Source: a bacterium
Lineage (GTDB): Bacteria > Zhuqueibacterota > Zhuqueibacteria > Oceanimicrobiales > Oceanimicrobiaceae
DNA: 64,000 bases
Assembly: GCA_037446635.1 (NCBI GenBank)
Contig: JBBIIG010000014.1
Span: 16,294 to 80,293, forward strand
Direction: 5' to 3'
Made by a program: the position numbers and the translations under genes. The notes beneath the pieces were generated by a model. The model had not been told where the DNA came from. It was given only the letters and a program-made list of their open reading frames with translations, and did not search any database. Below, piece after piece: positions 179 through 42,868 of the stretch; position 1 is the first letter of the stretch; every line of letters starts with the position of its first letter.

Positions 179-259
179 TGGATTAATGAAAGACAAACCG
201 CATGAATCCACCGATCCATATATCCATTAATCCTTTGGAAATTTAGAGGAGAAAAGACG

Positions 260-1246
260 ATGACACTCAAAGTAATCTTCTTGACGGGTTTCATTATGGT
301 GTTGGCTTCCGCGCTCTACGCACAGTCAAAAGATTTGCCAGCGGAGTACAAACAGATTCTGCCGCGCGGACAAATTGCGGCCATCACGCAGCCGCAATTT
401 GTTCCAGCCGACAAAGCCGAAATCGCCGATGACTCGTGGGTGCTGGGCGTGGTCATCGACGGTCAGGCACGGGCGTACAGCTTGAATCTGTTGAACAGCC
501 ATGAAGTGGTGAACGACCAAATCGGAGAGCAGGCTTTTGCCGCGGTGTGGTGACCGCTGGCTAATACCGGCGTCGTGTACGACCGCAAATATCAAGATAA
601 AACCATCACGTTTGAAGCTTCGGGCGGGCTGCTAAACAGCGCGTTGGTCATGCAGGATCGCGAGACCGATAGTTACTGGCCGATTATGCAGGGCGAGGCC
701 ATCGCCGGCGAAATGAAGGGGACGAAGTTAAAAGAAATGCCGGTCGCTGAAAAAGTCCAGTGGAAGGATTGGGTCAAAAAGCACCCGAACACATTGGTGC
801 TCTCGGTGAACGGCCGCGAAGACGGCTTCAATCCCTACAAAACATATTTTGAATCGAAAGAAGGCTTTCGCGGGACGGCGGCAAAGGATCGGCGTTTGGC
901 AACTAAGGAGCCGATCTTCGCTTTTCATTATCAAGGAAAAAGTTACGCGGTACCTTATAAGAATTTTGAGGGCGGCAAAACCTTCGATTTGAATGGTGTG
1001 AAACTCTTTCTCTATCGTCCGCCAAAATCCGAAATTTTCTACTCCACCGCGGCCTTTGCGGCTGCGGGTGATGGGTTTAAGATCGAAAACGGAAAGTGGT
1101 ACCACGTGGATTCGGGCTGCCAGTTTAATCCGAATTCGGGTTCATTTGAAAAGGGACCGGGAGCGTGCCCGGAGAAATTTCATGGGTTTGATACCTTTTG
1201 GTACAATTGGAGTTTGTCCAATCCGGATACCCAACTTTTACGGTAA
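260..1246 (+). CDS. DUF3179-family secreted protein interrupted by an in-frame TGA at 551-553 (possible selenocysteine site or pseudogene)
   Basis: ORFs 260..553 and 575..1246 are in the same frame (both = 2 mod 3). The first has a signal peptide (MTLKVIFLTGFIMVLASALYAQS). Read through the stop, the sequence is '...EQAFAAVW*PLANTGVVYDRKY...', which matches the DUF3179 core, so the TGA lies where family members carry the first Cys of the conserved CPLC-type motif, by my recollection of the family. There is an RBS-like GAGGAG upstream of 260. Confidence 0.5.
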
Positions 1247-1354: not shown

Positions 1355-1978
1355 ATGAAAGCATTCAGGACTTTGGTCGTATTCGCTCTGGCAACGGTTG
1401 TAGCTTTTGCTCTGGTCAATCTTTCAGCGCAGGAAACCAAGCATCAGCCCAAACCGCTCACCGAAGAGCAAAAAATGATGATGAAAAACATGGCCATGAA
1501 AAACATGGATAAGTTCATGGCCAGCAAAGACGCCATGATGCAGCTACCTCAGCATCTGAAAAAAACCCAGGACGAATCTATTAAGCTGGGGGAAGAATTA
1601 TTTAATTCGAAGACCGCGCTCAGCACCAATGGCCAGGCTTGCGCCAGTTGTCACCCCGGCGGCGGCACCACCGGCGGCGAAGCCGAGACGCCTATGGCCA
1701 GCGAGGTGACGGGCAAACCGTATAAACTGCCCATCCCGACTCTCATTGGCTCGGCGGCCACGTTTCCGAAATACAAAATTCCTAATGATGCGGTTATTAC
1801 CGTGGGCGATATGGCCAACAACTGCATCATGATGTTTATGGCTGCGCAGCCGCTTGACCCCAAAAGCAAAGAATTTAAGGCGTTGTCTGCTTACGTGACC
1901 TCCTTGAGCAACGAGGACAAAGTGTCGGTGGGAGAAGTGCCAGAGATGATGAAAAAAATGATGGGCGAAAAGAAGTAG
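1355..1978 (+). CDS. secreted monoheme c-type cytochrome
   Basis: Signal peptide (MKAFRTLVVFALATVVAFALVNLSAQE), a single CxxCH heme-binding motif (CASCH) and a Met-rich tail. GGAGG lies upstream of the ATG. Confidence 0.7.
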   Translation: MKAFRTLVVFALATVVAFALVNLSAQETKHQPKPLTEEQKMMMKNMAMKNMDKFMASKDAMMQLPQHLKKTQDESIKLGEELFNSKTALSTNGQACASCHPGGGTTGGEAETPMASEVTGKPYKLPIPTLIGSAATFPKYKIPNDAVITVGDMANNCIMMFMAAQPLDPKSKEFKALSAYVTSLSNEDKVSVGEVPEMMKKMMGEKK

Positions 1979-2058: not shown

Positions 2059-3072
2059 ATGAAGATTGTCAATATCTGTTTACTATTTGTGGTAGTAAGT
2101 TTGTCTATTGTAACCGCGCAAGATGGTGAAGATGCTGCGCGCTGGAAGAACACGCCGCAGGAGGCTTTCTTAAACAGCGAAATTGTTCAAACCTATCAAT
2201 GCACCAGTTGCCACACCATCGCCGAGCGCGGGGGTACCGTCGGGCCGATCCTGAATCAAGTGGGCAATCGCCGAACCGAAGAGTGGCTGCGCCGCTGGCT
2301 GGCCGACCCGCAGCAGGTTAAGCCCGGAACCAAGATGCCCAAGTTTGATTTCACGCCCGAGCAATTGGATGCGGTGGTCGGCTATTTGACCAACATGAAA
2401 AAAACGCTCCGCACCGATGCCATTCTCGCGCAAAACAAATCTTTAATCGAAACAGGCGAGATGCTGTTTGAGGATTACGATTGCCTGGCCTGCCATCGCG
2501 TGGGCTCCGACGGCAGATTTATCGGGCCGGACTTAACCTGGGTTGGGTTGCGAAAGACCGCGGCCTGGGAAAAAACCTGGCTGGCCGATCCCCCCGGATT
2601 TAAGCCCGATACCTTCATGCCTAATTTTCATATCCCGCAAAAGGGAATAGAAGCGCTGGCGGAGTATCTGCATAACCAGCAAGGACAGAAAAATGCCGAT
2701 TCGCAGGAGTGGGAATTTCGCACCAACTTCTTTCTGGGAAACAGCGATCGCGAACGCGGCGAATTGGTATTCAAGCGCTTTGCGTGTTGGGCGTGCCACG
2801 GTGAGAGCGGCAGCGGCGGCATCAAAAATCCCAACATGGCGCCCGACGAAATGATGCCGCCGCTGAAAGAAGCCGCGGTGAAATATACCGAAGCCGAGCT
2901 TTTGGCGCGGCTGAAAACGAAAACCGCGCCCCGGTCGCTGGATGGCAATAAACCAGCTCCGCCATTTTTCTGTCCGGACTATGGCAATTATATGGAAACT
3001 TCCGAATTCAGCGACCTTTACGCTTATTTGAAATCATTCGCGCCCAAGAAACTCAAGTGGCGGTTTAATTAA
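2059..3072 (+). CDS. secreted triheme c-type cytochrome (three class-I cytochrome c domains)
   Basis: Signal peptide, then three CxxCH motifs (CTSCH, CLACH, CWACH) spaced about 100 aa apart, each followed by a KMP/FMP-type Met ligand region. Confidence 0.7.
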   Translation: MKIVNICLLFVVVSLSIVTAQDGEDAARWKNTPQEAFLNSEIVQTYQCTSCHTIAERGGTVGPILNQVGNRRTEEWLRRWLADPQQVKPGTKMPKFDFTPEQLDAVVGYLTNMKKTLRTDAILAQNKSLIETGEMLFEDYDCLACHRVGSDGRFIGPDLTWVGLRKTAAWEKTWLADPPGFKPDTFMPNFHIPQKGIEALAEYLHNQQGQKNADSQEWEFRTNFFLGNSDRERGELVFKRFACWACHGESGSGGIKNPNMAPDEMMPPLKEAAVKYTEAELLARLKTKTAPRSLDGNKPAPPFFCPDYGNYMETSEFSDLYAYLKSFAPKKLKWRFN

Positions 3073-3280
3073 GTAAGCGGCATTATTCACAGACGGCAAA
3101 AGGTGAGGACGACATCTACATTGAAGTTTATTAATCCAAATGGGAGTAATGGATTATTGGATCGTTGGATCGTAACGCAAACCTCAGGTTTGCCCGCCTG
3201 CCTAAGGCCTCTGGCGGGCAGCTCAAAGCGGAGCTTTGAGTTACATATATAAAATTATCCAAGCTAAAAGGAGCAGAATC

Positions 3281-4012
3281 GTGTCAGTCAGGAAAGTTTT
3301 TTCGATAGCTTTGCTAGCGGTAGTTGCGCTCATCTATTTGGCCAATCATCGTACCTCCGAGGCCAGTTTAAACGGCGGCGCCGTCACCGGCGTGGTGCGA
3401 TTTCCTGGGGAGTATCCGGATCGCGAAAAGATCATGATCACCAAAGACCAGCAGGTTTGCGGCGCGTTTCAGTACTCGGAGATTTTTGTGGTGGCGGAAG
3501 AAAACCACGGGTTGAAAAACGTCGTGATTACGCTGGTAAATGTCAAAGGTGGGCAAGCGCCGGCCGCGGTAACGGCCACCATCGATCAGAAAGGGTGCCG
3601 CTATATGCCCCACGTGCAGGCCGTGCCGGTCGGCAGCAATTTGGAAATTCTGAATAGCGATGGCATCTTGCATAACATTCATGCCTATTACAATGGACTG
3701 GATCCTAAAAATACCGTCTTTAATAAAGCCCAACCTAAGTTTCTCAAAAAAATCACTCATACGCTGGATAAGGCCGGGATGTACTACTTCAAGTGCGATG
3801 TGCACAGTCACATGAGCGCGTATGTGGCGGTGATGGATCACCCGTATTATGCGGTGAGCGATGACTACGGTAAATTTACGATCGATAACGTGCCTCCCGG
3901 TTCCTATAAAATTCAAGCCTGGCATGAGGCTCTCGGCGTTTTAGAGAAGAACGTTACCGTCGCGGCTGGCAAAACCACTGATGTAAATTTTGATATTTTG
4001 CCAAATGAGTAA
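3281..4012 (+). CDS. cupredoxin (blue copper, plastocyanin/azurin-like) fused to a C-terminal CarboxypepD_reg-like beta-sandwich
   Basis: Type-1 copper ligand pattern H...C-x2-H-x4-M ('ILHNIHAY' ... 'FKCDVHSHMSAYV'). The C-terminus ('GKFTIDNVPPGSYKIQAWHEALGV') resembles a carboxypeptidase-regulatory domain. The start is taken as GTG 3281, 7 nt after AAAGGAG. An in-frame TTG at 3236 is an alternative. Confidence 0.6.
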   Translation: MSVRKVFSIALLAVVALIYLANHRTSEASLNGGAVTGVVRFPGEYPDREKIMITKDQQVCGAFQYSEIFVVAEENHGLKNVVITLVNVKGGQAPAAVTATIDQKGCRYMPHVQAVPVGSNLEILNSDGILHNIHAYYNGLDPKNTVFNKAQPKFLKKITHTLDKAGMYYFKCDVHSHMSAYVAVMDHPYYAVSDDYGKFTIDNVPPGSYKIQAWHEALGVLEKNVTVAAGKTTDVNFDILPNE

Positions 4013-4033: not shown

Positions 4034-4520
4034 ATGAAAAAGCTGTTCTTCTATTTTTTAGCCATTTCTAGTTTATTGTTAGTCTCGTGCAATAGTGACC
4101 AACCGTTGGGCAGCAATGACGGGGCAAATCCGAGTAAGTCGGGTTTCGGGGTCTCCGGACTTTTGTTTGAGAACAACCTGGTGATGTGGGATCGCGAGAA
4201 CCAAGGCAGCCGCAGCGAATTATTTCCACAAATGTATTTCACCCGCGCCGACGCCGCCGACTTTCCCACCTGGGACACATTTCCTTCCAACCAGATGGTT
4301 TCCGGCGGTCCGCCACGTGATGGCATACCTGCGCTGACCAATCCCAGAATCGTATCCTCAACTTCATAAGTAACGCGAATCCATTTCAGATGACTGATAA
4401 CGAGACCAACAGCGTTTGGAACATCAAAGGCGAGGCGATTTCCGGTGCACTCTCCGGCGTGAAGCTGACACAGATTCCCGCATACAATGTCAAATCTCAA
4501 TATCGTCGTTCCGATTGCTG
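4034..4520 (+). pseudogene. degraded second DUF3179-family lipoprotein gene (N-terminal 111 aa and C-terminal ~45 aa in different frames, middle missing)
   Basis: ORF 4034..4369 has a lipoprotein signal (LLLVSC) and the DUF3179 N-motif 'GGPPRDGIPALTNPRIVS'. Downstream, frame 0 reads a typical DUF3179 C-terminus ('...[34 protein letters not shown]', stop 4518-4520). The roughly 200 aa that normally lie between the two pieces are absent. Confidence 0.5.
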
Positions 4521-4907
4521 AATGGGGAGGTCGTTGGCGCTCATGTCTCTTCGCCTCATGAGACCCTCCTCATCGAACTCCCAGTGCTCGTTGCCGTGCG
4601 TACGATACCATTGACCGGTATCGGCATCGCGCCATTCGTATTCAAAGCGCACGGAAATGCGGTTATCTGTGTAAGCCCAGAGTTCCTTCATGAGGCGGTA
4701 ATCCAATTCTTTCGCCCACTTTCGTTTCAAAAACTCTTTAATCGCTTCTCTCCCGGTGAAAAATTCAGTGCGGTTTCGCCATTGGGAATCTTCCGTATAA
4801 GCGAGCACAACCCGTTCGGGGTCGCGGGTATTCCAGGCGTCTTCAGCAGCCTTTACTTTCGCCCGTGCGGTCTCTGCAGTGAATGGAGGTTTTATCGGTT
4901 GCTTCAT
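4497..4907 (-). CDS. DUF1348 family protein (NTF2-like fold)
   Basis: The sequence '[58 protein letters not shown]...' matches the strongly conserved DUF1348 signature. Confidence 0.75.
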
Positions 4908-4942: not shown

Positions 4943-5275
4943 TTATAAAAGCGTTTTCAGCCTCTCTGTCAACTCACTTTTTGAAATCACCCCGTTTAGT
5001 CGGTCGATCACTCTACCATTTTTGAAAAAGAGCATGGTTGGGATACATTCAATCCCAAATGTCGTGGCGATCGCAGGGTACTCGTCCGCGTTTATTTTCG
5101 CAAAATTAGCTTTACCAGAGAATTCCAGCGCCAAATCTTCGACGATGGCTGTCATGATTTCAGAAGCCCCACTCCAACTGGTCGAGAATAGCACCAGAAC
5201 CGGGAGTACGTTTTCGAGGACCCGGTGATTGAAATTCTTGCTCGTTAATATGATCGTTCTATTGGTTCTCGGCAT
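4943..5275 (-). CDS. thioredoxin-fold protein with active site WSGAS in place of WCGPC (no catalytic cysteines)
   Basis: Thioredoxin-like layout: '[27 protein letters not shown]...[37 protein letters not shown]'. Start chosen at the internal Met (MPRTNRTI) to avoid overlapping the neighbouring gene. The longest ORF runs to 5323. Confidence 0.6.
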
Positions 5276-5295
5276 CGATGTTTTTATGTCATTCG

Positions 5296-5898
5296 TTACA
5301 ACCGAATTCTTGCTGGGCAACACGATCTTAAAATATCCGGGTTTAATTTAGCGATTTCTTCGGCAATTTCTTCACTGGTGAATCGGGGTGTGATATGCTG
5401 CGGGCAGTTCCAATCAAAAGCCTGGATTTTGAAAATGATCAGACGCTCAATGTTGGCTTTGTAATCGGGCATCTTCAGTTCTTTTAACAATTCAGCATTC
5501 TGCTCGGCGTCGATCATTTCTGATTCAGCCCATATTTTCAGACGTTGTTGAGAAGGATAGTCCATTAAGAATAGTGACGCTTTACGGCTCGAATTGATGT
5601 TGCCAACACTGATGTATTGCATGTTGCCGCGAAAATCGGCATAGCCGAGCGTGGTGCTATCGATTACTTTCAGAAATCCTTTCGGACCACCGCGGAATTG
5701 CACATACGGCCAGCCGTTTTCGCCAACGGTAGCCATGTAAAAGCTGTCCCTTGATTCAATAAAAGAAATTTCTCTGTTTGTTAGAACATATTGGTTGCCG
5801 GACGCTTCCACACGGGCGTAGGATTGGCGAGAGCCGTACCGTTGCTGAGCCCTTCTAACGCTATCGGTGAAAGCAAACTTGGTGAAATTCTGGTTCAT
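5296..5898 (-). CDS. pyridoxamine 5'-phosphate oxidase-related FMN-binding family protein
   Basis: 'FTDSVRRAQQRYGSRQSYARVE...FYMATVGENGWPYVQFRGGPKGFLKVID...LGYADFRGNMQYISVGNI' matches the PNPOx-like split-barrel family. ORF of 200 aa. Confidence 0.65.
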   Translation of the reverse strand: MNQNFTKFAFTDSVRRAQQRYGSRQSYARVEASGNQYVLTNREISFIESRDSFYMATVGENGWPYVQFRGGPKGFLKVIDSTTLGYADFRGNMQYISVGNINSSRKASLFLMDYPSQQRLKIWAESEMIDAEQNAELLKELKMPDYKANIERLIIFKIQAFDWNCPQHITPRFTSEEIAEEIAKLNPDILRSCCPARIRL

Positions 5899-20985: not shown

Positions 20986-22647
20986 ATGAAGCGTTGGACA
21001 TTTGTTTTGTTAATCCTGTTATTTCCGGCTGTGCTTGCCGCACAAGGCGTCGTGCAGGTGTTTGATGCGGATATAGTTGGGGATGTGCTTTGGACTAAGA
21101 ACAACACCTACGTTTTGAACGGTTTGGTATTCGTGGAGGACGGCGAGACCTTGACCATCGAAGCTGGCACGGTGGTGAAAGGGAAGCCGGGGCAAGCGGA
21201 GGCGGCGAGTGCGTTAATTGTGGCGCGCGGCGGGAAGATTTTTGCGGAGGGCACGCCGACGCAGCCGATAATTTTCACCGCGGAGGCGGACGACGTGACA
21301 GACCCGAACGATTTGCCGGCGAACACGCGCGGCTTGTGGGGCGGCGTGATTATCTTGGGCCGCGCGGTGATCAACGTGGCAGGCGGGGAGCAGGACATCG
21401 AAGGCATTCCGGTGACGGAGCCGCGGGGGGTTTATGGCGGCACGGACGACGATGACAACAGCGGAGTTTTTCGGTACGTATCGATTCGCTACGGCGGCAC
21501 CAACATCGGGGCCAACAACGAGATCAACGGCTTGACGATGGGCGCGGTGGGGCGCGGGACGACAATTGAATTTGTAGAAGTGTTCAACAACGCGGACGAC
21601 GGCTACGAGTGGTTTGGGGGGACGGTGAACACGCGTTATTTAGTGAGCGCCTTCAACGATGACGACGGTTTTGATTATGATGAAGGGTGGCGCGGCCACA
21701 ACCAATTCTGGTTTTTGATTCAGGCGGAAGACGCCGGCGGTTCGGGCGGTGAGCATGACGGCGGCACGACGCCGGAGGATGGCTTGCCGTTTGCGATCCC
21801 GTTGATTTACAATGCGACGTATATTGGCAGCGGCGCCAGTTCAGCTAACACGCGCAGTGACTTTGCTTTGAACATTCGGGACAACGCGGGCGGGAAGTAT
21901 TACAACAGTATTTTCACGGATTTCTTTGGGCGGGCGGTTCAGATTGAAGATTTGGCGAGTGGGGAAGACAGTCGGGCGCGTTTGGACGCCGGCGATTTGG
22001 TGCTGCAAAACAACATTTGGTTTGGGTTTGGCGCCGGCAGCGCGACCACGGATTTGTTTGCGCAGGATTTCGTGCATACATACATGACCGACGCTGCCAA
22101 CAACAATCGCTTCGTCGATCCCATGCTGAATGGCGTCAGCCGCGCCGCCGATGCCGGCCTTGATCCACGTCCCGATGATGCAAGTCCAGCGTTGAGCGGA
22201 TTCGTTCAGCCGCCGACTGACGGTTTTTTTGCGCCCGTCGATTATGTCGGAGCGTTTGGCGACCAAAACTGGGCAGCCGACTGGACGTTCCTTTCAGAGG
22301 CCGGCTATCTGACGACCGCTGGCGCCCGTACGCCCAACGTGGTCACTTCAGTGGAGGAAGAGCGAATTCCAAACGTTCAGCCCACCAGATTTACGCTCAG
22401 CCAGAATTATCCGAATCCGTTCAACCCGACCACCAACATCAACTATGATTTGGTAACGACTACCCAGGTTCGGTTGACGGTGTACAACCTGCGCGGCCAG
22501 AAAGTCGCCACGCTAGTGGATGGTGTGCGCCCTGCTGGCAGCTACACCGTTACCTGGGATGCCGCAAATCTTTCGAGCGGAATATACATCTACCGTTTGG
22601 AAGCTGGCAAAAATGCCGTCTCGCGTATGATGACGCTTTTGAAGTAA
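20986..22647 (+). CDS. secreted T9SS cargo protein (C-terminal Por sorting domain), Gly/Asp-rich
   Basis: Signal peptide. The C-terminal ~80 aa ('FTLSQNYPNPFNPTTNINYDLVTTTQVRLTVYNLRGQKVATLVDGVRPAGSYTVTWDAANLSSGIYIYRLEAGKNAVSRMMTLLK') carry the T9SS type-A sorting-domain signature. AGGAGG RBS. Confidence 0.8.
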   Translation: MKRWTFVLLILLFPAVLAAQGVVQVFDADIVGDVLWTKNNTYVLNGLVFVEDGETLTIEAGTVVKGKPGQAEAASALIVARGGKIFAEGTPTQPIIFTAEADDVTDPNDLPANTRGLWGGVIILGRAVINVAGGEQDIEGIPVTEPRGVYGGTDDDDNSGVFRYVSIRYGGTNIGANNEINGLTMGAVGRGTTIEFVEVFNNADDGYEWFGGTVNTRYLVSAFNDDDGFDYDEGWRGHNQFWFLIQAEDAGGSGGEHDGGTTPEDGLPFAIPLIYNATYIGSGASSANTRSDFALNIRDNAGGKYYNSIFTDFFGRAVQIEDLASGEDSRARLDAGDLVLQNNIWFGFGAGSATTDLFAQDFVHTYMTDAANNNRFVDPMLNGVSRAADAGLDPRPDDASPALSGFVQPPTDGFFAPVDYVGAFGDQNWAADWTFLSEAGYLTTAGARTPNVVTSVEEERIPNVQPTRFTLSQNYPNPFNPTTNINYDLVTTTQVRLTVYNLRGQKVATLVDGVRPAGSYTVTWDAANLSSGIYIYRLEAGKNAVSRMMTLLK

Positions 22648-29701: not shown

Positions 29702-29998
29702 CCGGAGTGAAACGCTTTAGCGTTGCAGTTTCCCTGTGGAGTGCCAAACTTTAGTTGGCCTACGTCACCTAAAGCTTGACACTCCTCGCCTGCGCAAACT
29801 TTTCTCACGCCATTGCAAACCCTGCGCATACCAATTTTTCAACGACTCAATTGGGCGCGTTAAATCACGAATCGTAAACCATCACAAGATTACCACTTAA
29901 CGCCCCTCGATTGTGACGCGACCGCGCTGGCATCGCCTTTGCGTGATGAACGTCCAAACCAATTCACCCAATTTATTTCAAAAATAGGAGGATTTGTC

Positions 29999-32740
29999 AT
30001 GCCAACGGTACGGTTTACAAAATCAATTTTATGGACGTTGCTGGCGAGCGCGATATTGCTGGCCGCAACGAACCTGTGGGCGGCGGGAGAATTCGTTCTA
30101 TCCACGCGCTCCGATTTTTCCACCAATGATCGCATTTTCACCCGCGACGACACGCTGTTCATGAAAGTCATTGTGCCCAATATCGATGTCACTGAAATTC
30201 ACGACAACGAATTTCGTTTGCACGCTGAGAGCGGCGGCGGAAATTTCGAGGGCAAATTCACCAACCATCTGAACGGCACCTTCACCGCGAAGCTGGCGCT
30301 AAAAAACGCCGATCCCGGCGAAGCTAACTGGGAATGGCGCGGCCGCATCCGCGATCGCCACGGCCGCGAATTTGAAGCCGAAGTGAATCTGCAAATCGTC
30401 GCCAGCATCAATGGCGATATCGAAGTGAGGCTCAAGGGTAAGATTGAGGCACTGGGTGCGGATTTTGTCGTTGTCCAAAAAACGAAAGTCTTTGTGGATG
30501 CCCATACCCAAATCGTTGATGAAAATGGACAGGCGTTGACGTTCGTCGATTTGCGCGTCGGGCAGTCGGTGACAGTGACCGCGGTACGGAAAGAGAACGG
30601 CGATCTACTGGCGCGGCGCATCGCGTTTGTTTCGCGTTCGGAAAACGAACTGGAGTTGAAAGGCGTCATCGAAAGCATCGACGAAAGCAGTCTCGTGGTG
30701 CTTGGTCTCACGTTCAAGGTCGATGCCAACACCGAAATTGAAGACCACGACAACAACCCGATTTCGTTGAATGATTTATCGGTTGGCCAGTTCGTGGAAA
30801 TCAAAGCGAAAATTCAGAGCGACGGCTCGCGGCTGGCGCTGCGCATCCGCGTTGAAGATCACTCCGGTGAAATCGAATTGAAGGGGAAAATTGAAGCGCT
30901 GGGCGACCACAGTTTGGTTGTCTCCGGCGTGACGTTTGAAGTTACAGCGAATACCGAAATCCTCGGCGACGATAACCAGCTTATTTCGTTTGCCGATTTG
31001 CAGGTCGGCTTTTTGGTGGAGGTGAAAGGCATTCCAACTCAAGGGGAAACGATCATGGCAACGCGCATCAAAGTGGAGGGAGAATTATTTGTCGATGATG
31101 AAATCGAGTTTACCGGGCTGGTGTTCGAGGTCGGCGATCATTTCATCGTGGTTTCCGGGTTGCGATTTGAAGTGAGCGCCGCCACCGTGATTTTAGATGA
31201 CGACAATCATCCCATTACTTTGGCCGACATTCGCGCCGGCGTGTTTGTGGAAATTCGCGCGGACGTTGCCGCCGATGGCTCATTGCAAGCGACCAAAATT
31301 AAAATCGAAGATCGCTTCGACGATGAGGTCGAATTGACCGGCGAAATCGAAAGCATCGGAGAAAACACCCTGACGGTCGATGGCAAAGTTTTTGTGGTCA
31401 ACGAAAGCACGGTGGTGCTGGACAACCGGAACCTGCCGATTCCCTTCAGTGCGCTGCAGGTTGGGATGCTCGTCGAAGTGCGCGCTGATTTGCAGTTGGA
31501 CGGCTCGCTGCTGGCGACGCGCATCAAAATCGAAGATCGCGATGACGACGAAGTGGAGCTGACGGGCCGCATTGAGGCGATTGTTGGCCAAACGCTGGTG
31601 GTCGGCGGCTTCACGTTCACCGTGGACGCCAACACCGTTGTTCTCGACAACCGCAATAACGCAATCGCCTTTGCCGACCTGCGCGTTGGGTTGATTGTGG
31701 AGATTCGCGCCGATAAGCAATTGGACGGAACGCTGCTCGCCACCCGCATCAAAATTGAAGACCGCATGGCAGACGAAGTGGAAATCACCGGATTGATTGA
31801 AGCCCTCACCGAGTCCGCGATCACCGTCGCAGGCCAAACCTTCCTGTTCACGGAAAACACCATCGTGCTGGATAATAACAATTTGCCCATTCCGCGCGCG
31901 AATCTTTCGGTGGGGCAGCGGGTGGAAATCAAAGGCGATCTTTTGGCGGACGGCACGCTCATCGCGCTGCGAATAAAATTAGAGGACGGCGCCAACAACG
32001 AAGTGGAGGTTGAAGGGCCAATCTCCGCGGTTGGTCTCGGCACGCTTGCGGTTCTGGAAAATAATTTCATCGTCAACCTCGGCACCGAGATTCTCGACAT
32101 CAACAATTTGCCAATCACATTGGGCGATTTGTTAGTTGGACAGGTCGTGAAAGTGCGCGCTGTGCTGGAACTGAACGGCACGCGCATCGCTACGCGCATT
32201 CAGTTGAAAAACGTGGTTGTGATGTCAGGCAATATCGCGCAGGTGAACGTGAATAGCGTGGTGATTTTGAATAAAGTTGTGAAGATTGATGCCAACACGT
32301 TGATTCTGGCCGAACAGAATCGCGCCATCGCTTTTGCGGATTTGAAAGTCGGCGACCGCGTGGAAGTGCGCGGTGAGCCGCAGCCCAACGATGAAGTAAA
32401 CGCGACGAAAATCAAAACTCAGCAGCCGAATGTGATTACCGGTATCGGCGATTCTGATGCGGGTTCCAACCTTCCCAAGCAGTTTGCGCTGGAGCAGAAT
32501 TATCCCAATCCCTTCAACCCGAGCACGAACATCAGTTACAATCTCGCGCGCGACGGCCGGGTTCGTCTCGCGGTGTACAACTTGCTGGGTCAGCGAGTCG
32601 CCACGCTGGTGGACGAGGTTCGCCCGGCTGGGAGTCACACTTTAACCTGGAATGCCGCGAATCTTCCCAGCGGCATTTACATCTACCGTCTGGAAGCCGG
32701 CGGCAATGTGTTGTCGCGGCGGATGACACTTTTGAAGTGA
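29999..32740 (+). CDS. 914-aa T9SS cargo protein made of about 10 tandem DUF5666-like repeats
   Basis: A repeat unit of about 60 aa ('...TVDGKVFVVNESTVVLDNRNLPIPFSALQVGMLVEVRADLQLDGSLLATRIKIEDR...') recurs about 10 times. C-terminal 'FALEQNYPNPFNPSTNISYNLARDGRVRLAVYNLLGQRVATLVDEVRPAGSHTLTWNAANLPSGIYIYRLEAGGNVLSRRMTLLK' is the T9SS sorting domain. Start at ATG 29999, after AGGAGG. Confidence 0.75.
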   Translation: MPTVRFTKSILWTLLASAILLAATNLWAAGEFVLSTRSDFSTNDRIFTRDDTLFMKVIVPNIDVTEIHDNEFRLHAESGGGNFEGKFTNHLNGTFTAKLALKNADPGEANWEWRGRIRDRHGREFEAEVNLQIVASINGDIEVRLKGKIEALGADFVVVQKTKVFVDAHTQIVDENGQALTFVDLRVGQSVTVTAVRKENGDLLARRIAFVSRSENELELKGVIESIDESSLVVLGLTFKVDANTEIEDHDNNPISLNDLSVGQFVEIKAKIQSDGSRLALRIRVEDHSGEIELKGKIEALGDHSLVVSGVTFEVTANTEILGDDNQLISFADLQVGFLVEVKGIPTQGETIMATRIKVEGELFVDDEIEFTGLVFEVGDHFIVVSGLRFEVSAATVILDDDNHPITLADIRAGVFVEIRADVAADGSLQATKIKIEDRFDDEVELTGEIESIGENTLTVDGKVFVVNESTVVLDNRNLPIPFSALQVGMLVEVRADLQLDGSLLATRIKIEDRDDDEVELTGRIEAIVGQTLVVGGFTFTVDANTVVLDNRNNAIAFADLRVGLIVEIRADKQLDGTLLATRIKIEDRMADEVEITGLIEALTESAITVAGQTFLFTENTIVLDNNNLPIPRANLSVGQRVEIKGDLLADGTLIALRIKLEDGANNEVEVEGPISAVGLGTLAVLENNFIVNLGTEILDINNLPITLGDLLVGQVVKVRAVLELNGTRIATRIQLKNVVVMSGNIAQVNVNSVVILNKVVKIDANTLILAEQNRAIAFADLKVGDRVEVRGEPQPNDEVNATKIKTQQPNVITGIGDSDAGSNLPKQFALEQNYPNPFNPSTNISYNLARDGRVRLAVYNLLGQRVATLVDEVRPAGSHTLTWNAANLPSGIYIYRLEAGGNVLSRRMTLLK

Positions 32741-41947: not shown

Positions 41948-42868
41948 GTGAGAAATATTCAAATTACAACCGTATTGATTTGCTCGCTCGGCGTTTTTTT
42001 GAACTCAGCCTTTGCCCAAACCGGCAGCGCCGGCGCCACCGGGCTGGCGTTTCTGAAATTGGGCGTTGGCGCGCGCGCTAACGGCATGGGGGAGGCCTTT
42101 GTCGCGGTTGCCAATGACGCCGCCGCCACGTTCTGGAATCCGGCCGGTCTTTCCCAACTCGAACGTTCGCATTTCACCTTCACGCACAGCGAATGGATTC
42201 AGGATATTTCCAGCGAGTTTCTGGCGTTGGCGTTTCCGGCTTTTGGCGGCGTGACCGGCTTCAGCGTTTACGTCAACAATGTGGGCGGCATTGAACGCCG
42301 CGTCAACCCTTCTGAAGAACCGCTTGGAACCATTGACGCCAACGATGTTGCTCTGGGCGTCTCGTATGGCCGCTCGTTGGGTTCATCCATGCAGGCCGGC
42401 ATCACGGTAAAATATCTTTACGAGAAAATTTACCTGGAAAGCGCTTCGGGGTATGCTTTTGATTTCGGCCTGAATGTTCAACCTTTTGGCAGCGCGTTAA
42501 ATTTGGCGGTCGCGGCGCAGAATTTAGGCTCAATGAATGAGCTGCTGGCCGAGTCCATCGATTTGCCGAAAACCCTGCGCTTCGGCGCCGCTTATTCGTT
42601 TCCGCTGGCCGCGCTCGATGGCGCGGTGGTGCTGGCTGCAGAGGGCGTCAAAGTTGTGGAGAACGATCTGCGCGGCAGCTTCGGCGCCGAAGTGCAATTG
42701 AAAAAAATGCTGGCTTTACGCTTGGGATACCAGAGTGGCTACGAGGATAGAAGCTTGGCCGGCGGGTTTGGTTTGTCCTTCCAGCGCTACCACCTCGATT
42801 ATGGCTACACCCCGGTTGGTTCGAATTTAGGCGATACCCATCGTTTTTCCTTCGGCCTGGATTGGTAA
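41948..42868 (+). CDS. second PorV/PorQ-like outer-membrane beta-barrel protein (paralogue)
   Basis: 'GLAFLKLGVGARANGMGEAFVAVANDAAATFWNPAGL'. Ends '...FSFGLDW'. Confidence 0.55.
   Translation: MRNIQITTVLICSLGVFLNSAFAQTGSAGATGLAFLKLGVGARANGMGEAFVAVANDAAATFWNPAGLSQLERSHFTFTHSEWIQDISSEFLALAFPAFGGVTGFSVYVNNVGGIERRVNPSEEPLGTIDANDVALGVSYGRSLGSSMQAGITVKYLYEKIYLESASGYAFDFGLNVQPFGSALNLAVAAQNLGSMNELLAESIDLPKTLRFGAAYSFPLAALDGAVVLAAEGVKVVENDLRGSFGAEVQLKKMLALRLGYQSGYEDRSLAGGFGLSFQRYHLDYGYTPVGSNLGDTHRFSFGLDW

Follow-up and report, generated by a model that had tools for sequence, protein, structure and literature searches.

Near the 5′ end of the stretch of DNA analysed here (64,000 nt, referred to as the window) lie two ORFs, 260..553 and 575..1246, which share a single reading frame and are separated by nothing other than a TGA at positions 551-553. 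Translation of the window bore out this layout as the earlier note had described it, including the context of the TGA, which reads ...AAVW*PLANTGVVYDRKY. Between the ATG at 260 and the terminal TAA no further stop codon occurs. The 21 nt that separate the two ORFs are themselves stop-free, and the GTG at 575 with which the second ORF begins is in frame with the ATG. The features of the locus and of its surroundings are collected in Table 1.

Table 1. Features of the DUF3179 locus and of its surroundings in the window.
Feature	Position	Strand	Remarks
Shine-Dalgarno-like AGAGGAG	245..251	+	8 nt upstream of ATG 260; read from the sequence
Complete gene, very probably of a DUF3179 selenoprotein	260..1246	+	328 codons including one Sec codon; TAA at 1244-1246
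Probable N-terminal signal peptide MTLKVIFLTGFIMVLASALYAQ	260..325 (end approximate)	+	predicted from the sequence
UGA, very probably read as selenocysteine U98	551..553	+	motif W-U-P-L-A-N; TGA in 146/158 homologous loci
SECIS-like hairpin	567..586	+	within codons T-G-V-V-Y-D-R
Separately called 223-aa protein P0001	575..1246	+	100% identical to NCBI record
Cys pair C287, C303	1118..1168	+	C287 at 1118-1120 (DSGC...), C303 at 1166-1168 (...ACPEKF)
SoxA/TsdA-like cytochrome c	1355-1978	+	exported redox protein, directly downstream
Cytochrome c with three cytochrome-c domains	2059-3072	+	exported redox protein
Weak cupredoxin-like match plus CarboxypepD_reg domain	3236-4012	+	exported redox protein
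Degraded DUF3179-like stretch	4034-4530	+	Pfam E = 8e-7
DUF1348 gene	4497-4907	-	adjoins the degraded DUF3179-like stretch
Thioredoxin-fold protein	4943-5323	-	Pfam Thioredoxin E = 6e-19; active site W-S-G-A-S
Type IX secretion markers	20986-22647, 29939-32740, 41948-42868		two Por_Secre_tail-domain proteins and one PorV-like protein

The ATG at 260 follows a Shine-Dalgarno (SD)-like site, and no comparable purine-rich site was found upstream of the internal GTG (positions 555-574 read cgctggctaataccggcgtc). The N-terminus that it opens has the build of a signal peptide: its n-region is basic, its core is hydrophobic, and it has Ala-rich ASA/YA sites. The N-termini of homologues are similarly hydrophobic or carry lipoprotein boxes such as LAGC and LLGC. 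Together, the predicted signal peptide and the lipoprotein boxes of its relatives suggest that the protein is probably located outside the cytoplasm.

When Cys is written in place of the stop, the 328-aa read-through product matches the Pfam family DUF3179 (PF11376) with E = 4.7e-55 and 187.5 bits, against a gathering cut-off of 27 bits. The match takes in aa 37-324 of the product and positions 2-292 of the 292-position profile, and so spans the TGA. A scan of the same read-through protein against NCBIfam matched no family. We then aligned the product with 55 full-length homologues, which are 43-55% identical. This placed the TGA in the column of the family's conserved Cys, as the earlier note had supposed: 50/55 homologues have Cys there and 5/55 have Ser. 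All 50 full-length Cys forms read W-C-P-L/I-A/S-N at this site. The earlier note had further observed that the second Cys of the motif is Ala in this gene, and had taken the layout for the classic one, with Sec (selenocysteine) at the first position of a CxxC motif. Ala is indeed present at +3, but it is no loss peculiar to this gene, as the window protein shares it with almost all relatives, Sec and Cys forms alike (WUPLAN/WCPLAN; one Cys form has Ser). Since Ala at +3 is family-wide, this is not a protein with a UxxC/CxxC redox motif.

The Ser-form homologues are a small full-length group (P0035, P0044, P0055, P0081 and P0098). In four of them the motif is W-S-P-M-A-N and the C-terminal Cys pair is retained; P0035 has W-S-P-I-A-N and no such pair. 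Moreover, at one locus, on a large contig of an Acidobacteriota MAG (L042, 3298-3300), TGG (Trp) stands in place of the Sec codon. Either some lineages can do without the residue, or the Ser and Trp forms are errors or inactive copies.

Conservation of the TGA was examined at the DNA level. A tblastn scan of 80 homologous loci, with one genome per species, found TGA at the Sec site in 78 of the 80, with TGC in one and TGG in one. The matches cover query residues about 2-327, across the TGA, and the encoded proteins are 47-69% identical to the window protein, with conservation on both sides of this codon. Among the hosts of these loci are candidate division KSB1, Calditrichota, Acidobacteriota, Gammaproteobacteria, Planctomycetota, Nitrospira, Polyangiaceae and Krumholzibacteriia. 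When the hits of a metagenome scan, for which a Cys-form protein was the query, are added to the genome loci, the total is 158. The codon is TGA in 146 of these (AAVW-TGA-PLAN), a Cys codon (TGC/TGT) in 11 and TGG in 1, and every relative above about 55% identity has TGA. The same TGA in 146/158 homologous loci excludes chance.

These counts bear directly on the choice left by the earlier note, between a selenoprotein and a fresh pseudogene in which a recent TGC/TGT-to-TGA point mutation had inactivated a DUF3179 gene of the Cys type. The latter would need no more than one base change, the local hairpin is weak and a degraded DUF3179-like remnant lies close by. However, a recent inactivating mutation cannot explain a TGA that is conserved across loci from many phyla, including all of the closer relatives, and both halves of the gene are conserved at the protein level. 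The remnant is real, as the earlier note had reported, but it does not lend pseudogenisation the support that was claimed for it. It consists of canonical DUF3179 pieces in two frames, with the N-terminal and mid-domain motifs in the wrong order and the Cys-motif region missing: a lipoprotein signal is followed by ..FGVSGLLFENNLVMWDRE.. and then by ..GGPPRDGIPALTNPRIV.., and after a frame change by ..ETNSVWNIKGEAISGALSGVKL... It is the scrambled, frame-shifted remnant of a different DUF3179 paralogue of the canonical CPLC/T type (GGPxxDGIPA/CPLT), and tells nothing about whether the gene at 260..1246 is intact. A paralogue of this type is found intact at another locus (L046, 5359-6495; ..SFCPLTGSG..), 1.4 kb downstream of the Sec-type gene. 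We consider the fresh pseudogene refuted and give it next to no credence.

The TGA might instead be a conserved true stop, such that the locus yields two polypeptides, or only the 223 aa from GTG 575, with the hairpin having a part in termination or reinitiation. It is precisely this 223-aa product that automated annotation reports, and conservation of a TGA is by itself no proof of Sec. Against this, homologues with a Cys codon here each form one full-length protein in which the flanking motif is the same, GTG 575 is without an SD site, and the internal start varies among homologues (Met-Tyr-Asp... or Leu-Ala-Asn...). Moreover, the C-terminal product would be left without a signal peptide and the hairpin has SECIS geometry, as set out below. 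A true stop is thus very improbable. P0001, the public protein entry for this locus, is an artefact of gene calling, which stops at the Sec codon and restarts at the internal GTG. Of the 120 best database homologues, about half are C-terminal fragments of the same type, of ~223 aa, and the closest relatives (56-70% identical) are almost all ~223-aa fragments that begin just past the TGA position. The Sec forms of this subfamily are thus systematically mis-annotated. The 223-aa call is deprived of the signal peptide, of ~100 N-terminal residues and of the active-site residue. Once the Sec codon is recognised, a protein of 328 aa, probably exported, is regained, and this correction of the gene call is the main value of the finding. 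By the same token, the organism is probably a user of selenocysteine.

We next consider the RNA downstream of the TGA. In single-sequence folds of the 60 nt that follow it, a family helix, CGGCCGU-CGUGU-ACGGCCG, recurs. Its 5′ arm begins 13 nt past the TGA, and the TGA-to-loop spacing is 20 nt. Unguided RNAalifold on 77 sequences did not return this 7-bp helix and gave a different, weak 4-bp structure instead; therefore, the helix seen in single-sequence folds was tested explicitly, in an ungapped alignment of the 77 sequences with columns 26-32 paired with columns 38-44. In this alignment 90.8% of cells are paired, and double-sided changes occur at 3/7 helix pairs, amounting to 25 cells in all. 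Among the compensatory changes, C-G is replaced by U-A in 11 sequences, through a GCC-to-GCU substitution that is synonymous for Ala on one side and a Gly-to-Ser substitution on the other, and by G-C in 5 sequences. Column shuffles matched the observed helix values in 0/500 cases, although such statistics overstate independence because the sequences are phylogenetically related. Control registers slid by 1-3 nt reached only 20-51% pairing.

The Cys forms, which encode nearly the same peptide, serve as a control for selection on the protein. The mean number of pairs, out of 7, is 6.37 among Sec forms (134 distinct sequences) and 4.27 among the 11 Cys forms (Mann-Whitney p = 3e-9). At least 6 of the 7 pairs are formed in 94% of Sec forms and in 0% of Cys forms (0/11), and the loop CGUGU is found in 118/134 and 2/11, respectively. 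At third codon positions, the entropy among Sec forms is 1.0-1.9 bit outside the helix and drops to 0.19-0.83 bit within it. Taken together, these sequence comparisons point to RNA-level selection on the hairpin that is specific to Sec forms. The published bacterial SECIS (bSECIS) model specifies a loop of 3-9 nt, a stem of 4-16 bp, a UGA-to-loop distance of 16-37 nt, a G in the first two loop positions and a stability cut-off of -7.5 kcal/mol (PMC13188914). The family register fits this geometry, with a loop of 5 nt, a stem of 7 bp and a spacing of 20 nt, and its loop has G at position 2, followed by U.

The window's own copy of the hairpin is one of the weaker ones. In the family register, positions 567-573 face 579-585 across the loop CGUGU (574-578), and 5/7 pairs are formed. 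An alternative register pairs 570-575 with 580-586, leaving C583 bulged and a loop of UGUA, at -5.9 kcal/mol; its 6 bp plus bulge and its spacing of 22 nt also agree with bSECIS geometry. The hairpin singled out in the earlier note, gcgtcgtgtacgaccgc, lies at 570-586, starts 17 nt after the TGA and is the window's best local fold. It had been dismissed as weak and not a convincing SECIS element. The weakness stands, but the hairpin occupies the SECIS position conserved in the family. Its -5.9 kcal/mol misses the bSECIS cut-off of -7.5 kcal/mol or lower, a value used as a heuristic in searches rather than a biological requirement. The median energy among the genome loci is -7.1 kcal/mol, with 36/77 passing the cut-off, and that among the 134 distinct Sec forms is -7.6 kcal/mol. 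Compared with shuffles the window hairpin is no better (z = -0.55 to -0.97), and it ranks 54th of 77. An identical variant is present in a KSB1 genome (L018), so that this weak form is evidently tolerated.

A further reading has UGA translated not as Sec but as a standard amino acid, through Trp/Gly recoding or leaky near-cognate read-through. The Trp codon at L042 would suit it, as would the fact that Sec machinery was not seen in the window: a tRNA scan of the 64 kb found none, and SelA, SelB and SelD were not among the 34 larger window ORFs scanned, which is weak evidence given that the window is a small part of the genome. However, TGA is the terminator of 22/55 large ORFs in the window, and therefore a reassigned genetic code is not the explanation; the homologous loci likewise come from standard-code phyla. 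Moreover, the residues that replace the TGA are Cys (11 loci) or Ser, which is the signature of a Sec/Cys family, with Trp occurring once, and DUF3179 is curated as a selenoprotein family. We regard translation as a standard amino acid as highly unlikely. An Rfam scan of the whole 64-kb window gave no match, and no second selenoprotein gene was recognised in it, the other TGA read-through candidates not being coding on both sides.

We conclude that 260..1246 is very probably one intact gene, encoding an exported DUF3179 selenoprotein in which UGA 551-553 is read as Sec. Of the two possibilities raised in the earlier note, the selenoprotein is thus the one upheld, by a TGA conserved at the Cys column across phyla, by a conserved and covarying hairpin, and by a family that is already catalogued. 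Judged on sequence evidence, we hold this selenoprotein reading to be correct with high confidence. The ribosome would read the UGA as selenocysteine, with the hairpin at 567-586, which starts 13-16 nt downstream of it, acting as a bacterial SECIS element and presumably recruiting SelB with Sec-tRNA(Sec). In the loop motif W-[C/U]-P-L-A-N, Sec would stand where the family has its one conserved Cys. As there is no second Cys at +3, it would act alone and not as one half of a CxxC pair.

What this residue does may be proposed with less assurance. Our best guess is that Sec is most likely the lone redox-active or metal-/substrate-binding nucleophile of an extracytoplasmic enzyme. Conserved residues that are candidates for lying around U98 are H81, E82, N85 and D86 of the HEVVND motif, R109, D133 and W140. 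A fuller proposal, that the W-U-P-L-A-N branch is an extracytoplasmic selenoenzyme whose Sec works alone, with no resolving Cys, on a Rieske-like beta-sandwich, is speculative and in our estimate rather unlikely. Sec rather than Cys is kept in about 90% of the sampled members, from at least seven phyla. If the proposal were true, so strong a preference for Sec in an exported protein would suggest a chemistry that is hard for Cys in the periplasm, for example one that deals with metals, chalcogens or reactive oxidants.

The C-terminal Cys pair, C287 and C303, was considered as an obligatory partner of Sec. It is present in 28-29/79 loci, mainly from a clade of KSB1, Calditrichota and Gammaproteobacteria; it is absent from most Acidobacteriota Sec forms and from the Cys forms, and is kept in 4/5 Ser forms. 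An obligatory partnership was rejected, given that most Acidobacteriota Sec forms are without the pair and most Ser forms have it. The two residues are more likely to form a structural disulfide than to supply a resolving thiol.

Gene neighbourhoods were also inspected. As conserved operon partners, the window's downstream genes for cytochromes c and the cupredoxin-like protein were rejected, for they lie beside DUF3179 in 0/80 loci, and no conserved neighbour gene in the related genome loci gave a clue to function. The only recurrent neighbours are an ECF sigma factor and an anti-sigma partner. The ECF-type sigma gene stands divergently upstream of the Sec-type DUF3179 gene in 18 of 81 loci (e.g. 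L001, 1385-2690, minus strand), and in 9 a zinc-finger anti-sigma-like gene joins it; both identities were assigned by eye from sequence. This pair is not found in the window; there the DUF3179 gene is preceded by a plus-strand gene that ends near 177. Elsewhere in the window, the thioredoxin-fold protein has both redox cysteines replaced, the active-site motif of thioredoxins normally being W-C-G-P-C. Markers of Type IX secretion are also present (Table 1). Taken with the best DUF3179 matches, which come from unclassified MAGs, KSB1 and Calditrichota, they suggest that the source organism is related to the FCB group or resembles KSB1/Calditrichota.

Lastly, we compared the gene and its product with known systems. 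A structure was modelled for a 55%-identical Cys homologue, in place of the window protein. The likeness to a Rieske-type [2Fe-2S] ferredoxin is one of fold only. Homology to Rieske [2Fe-2S] proteins found no support: the CxH...CxxH ligands are not there, profile comparison gave 2.5% probability and Foldseek returned no significant PDB match. A sequence search of the PDB found no relative. Like bSECIS elements of the E. coli fdhF type, the family hairpin is a stem-loop inside the coding sequence shortly past the UGA, with a small apical loop that has G at position 2 and then U, a spacing of 20 nt and a 7-bp upper stem. It differs in that the window copy falls short of the stability cut-off and has its best register shifted by a few nt.

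Canonical Cys-type DUF3179 proteins follow the pattern GGPxKDGIPA ... HExxND ... CPLC/T ... SGLLxxNLxxxDRET. The window protein shares with them the domain and the HE..ND and [C/U]PL motifs. However, the canonical proteins have Cys in place of Sec, Cys or Thr at +3, and GGPxxDGIPA as the N-terminal motif where the window protein has LPRGxIAAI. Two reviews count DUF3179, with the motif UxxC/T, among the prokaryotic selenoprotein families (PMC9312934, PMC13188914), a listing for which both cite Zhang & Gladyshev 2007 (PMC1976440). Some of the relatives are named 'DUF3179 domain-containing (seleno)protein' in their NCBI records. The window gene is therefore a member of an already catalogued selenoprotein family, for which the Sec position and the SECIS principle are known too, and scientifically it adds little. 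It agrees with the catalogued members in its Pfam family, in having Sec at the conserved Cys that begins C/U-P-L-x, in the SECIS-like hairpin just downstream and in the existence of Cys homologues. It differs from them in the Ala at +3 (U-P-L-A-N) that is found in nearly all subfamily members sampled. This Ala, together with the overwhelming predominance of the Sec form in the subfamily across the two DNA samples (146/158), is what may prove mildly useful toward the function of DUF3179.
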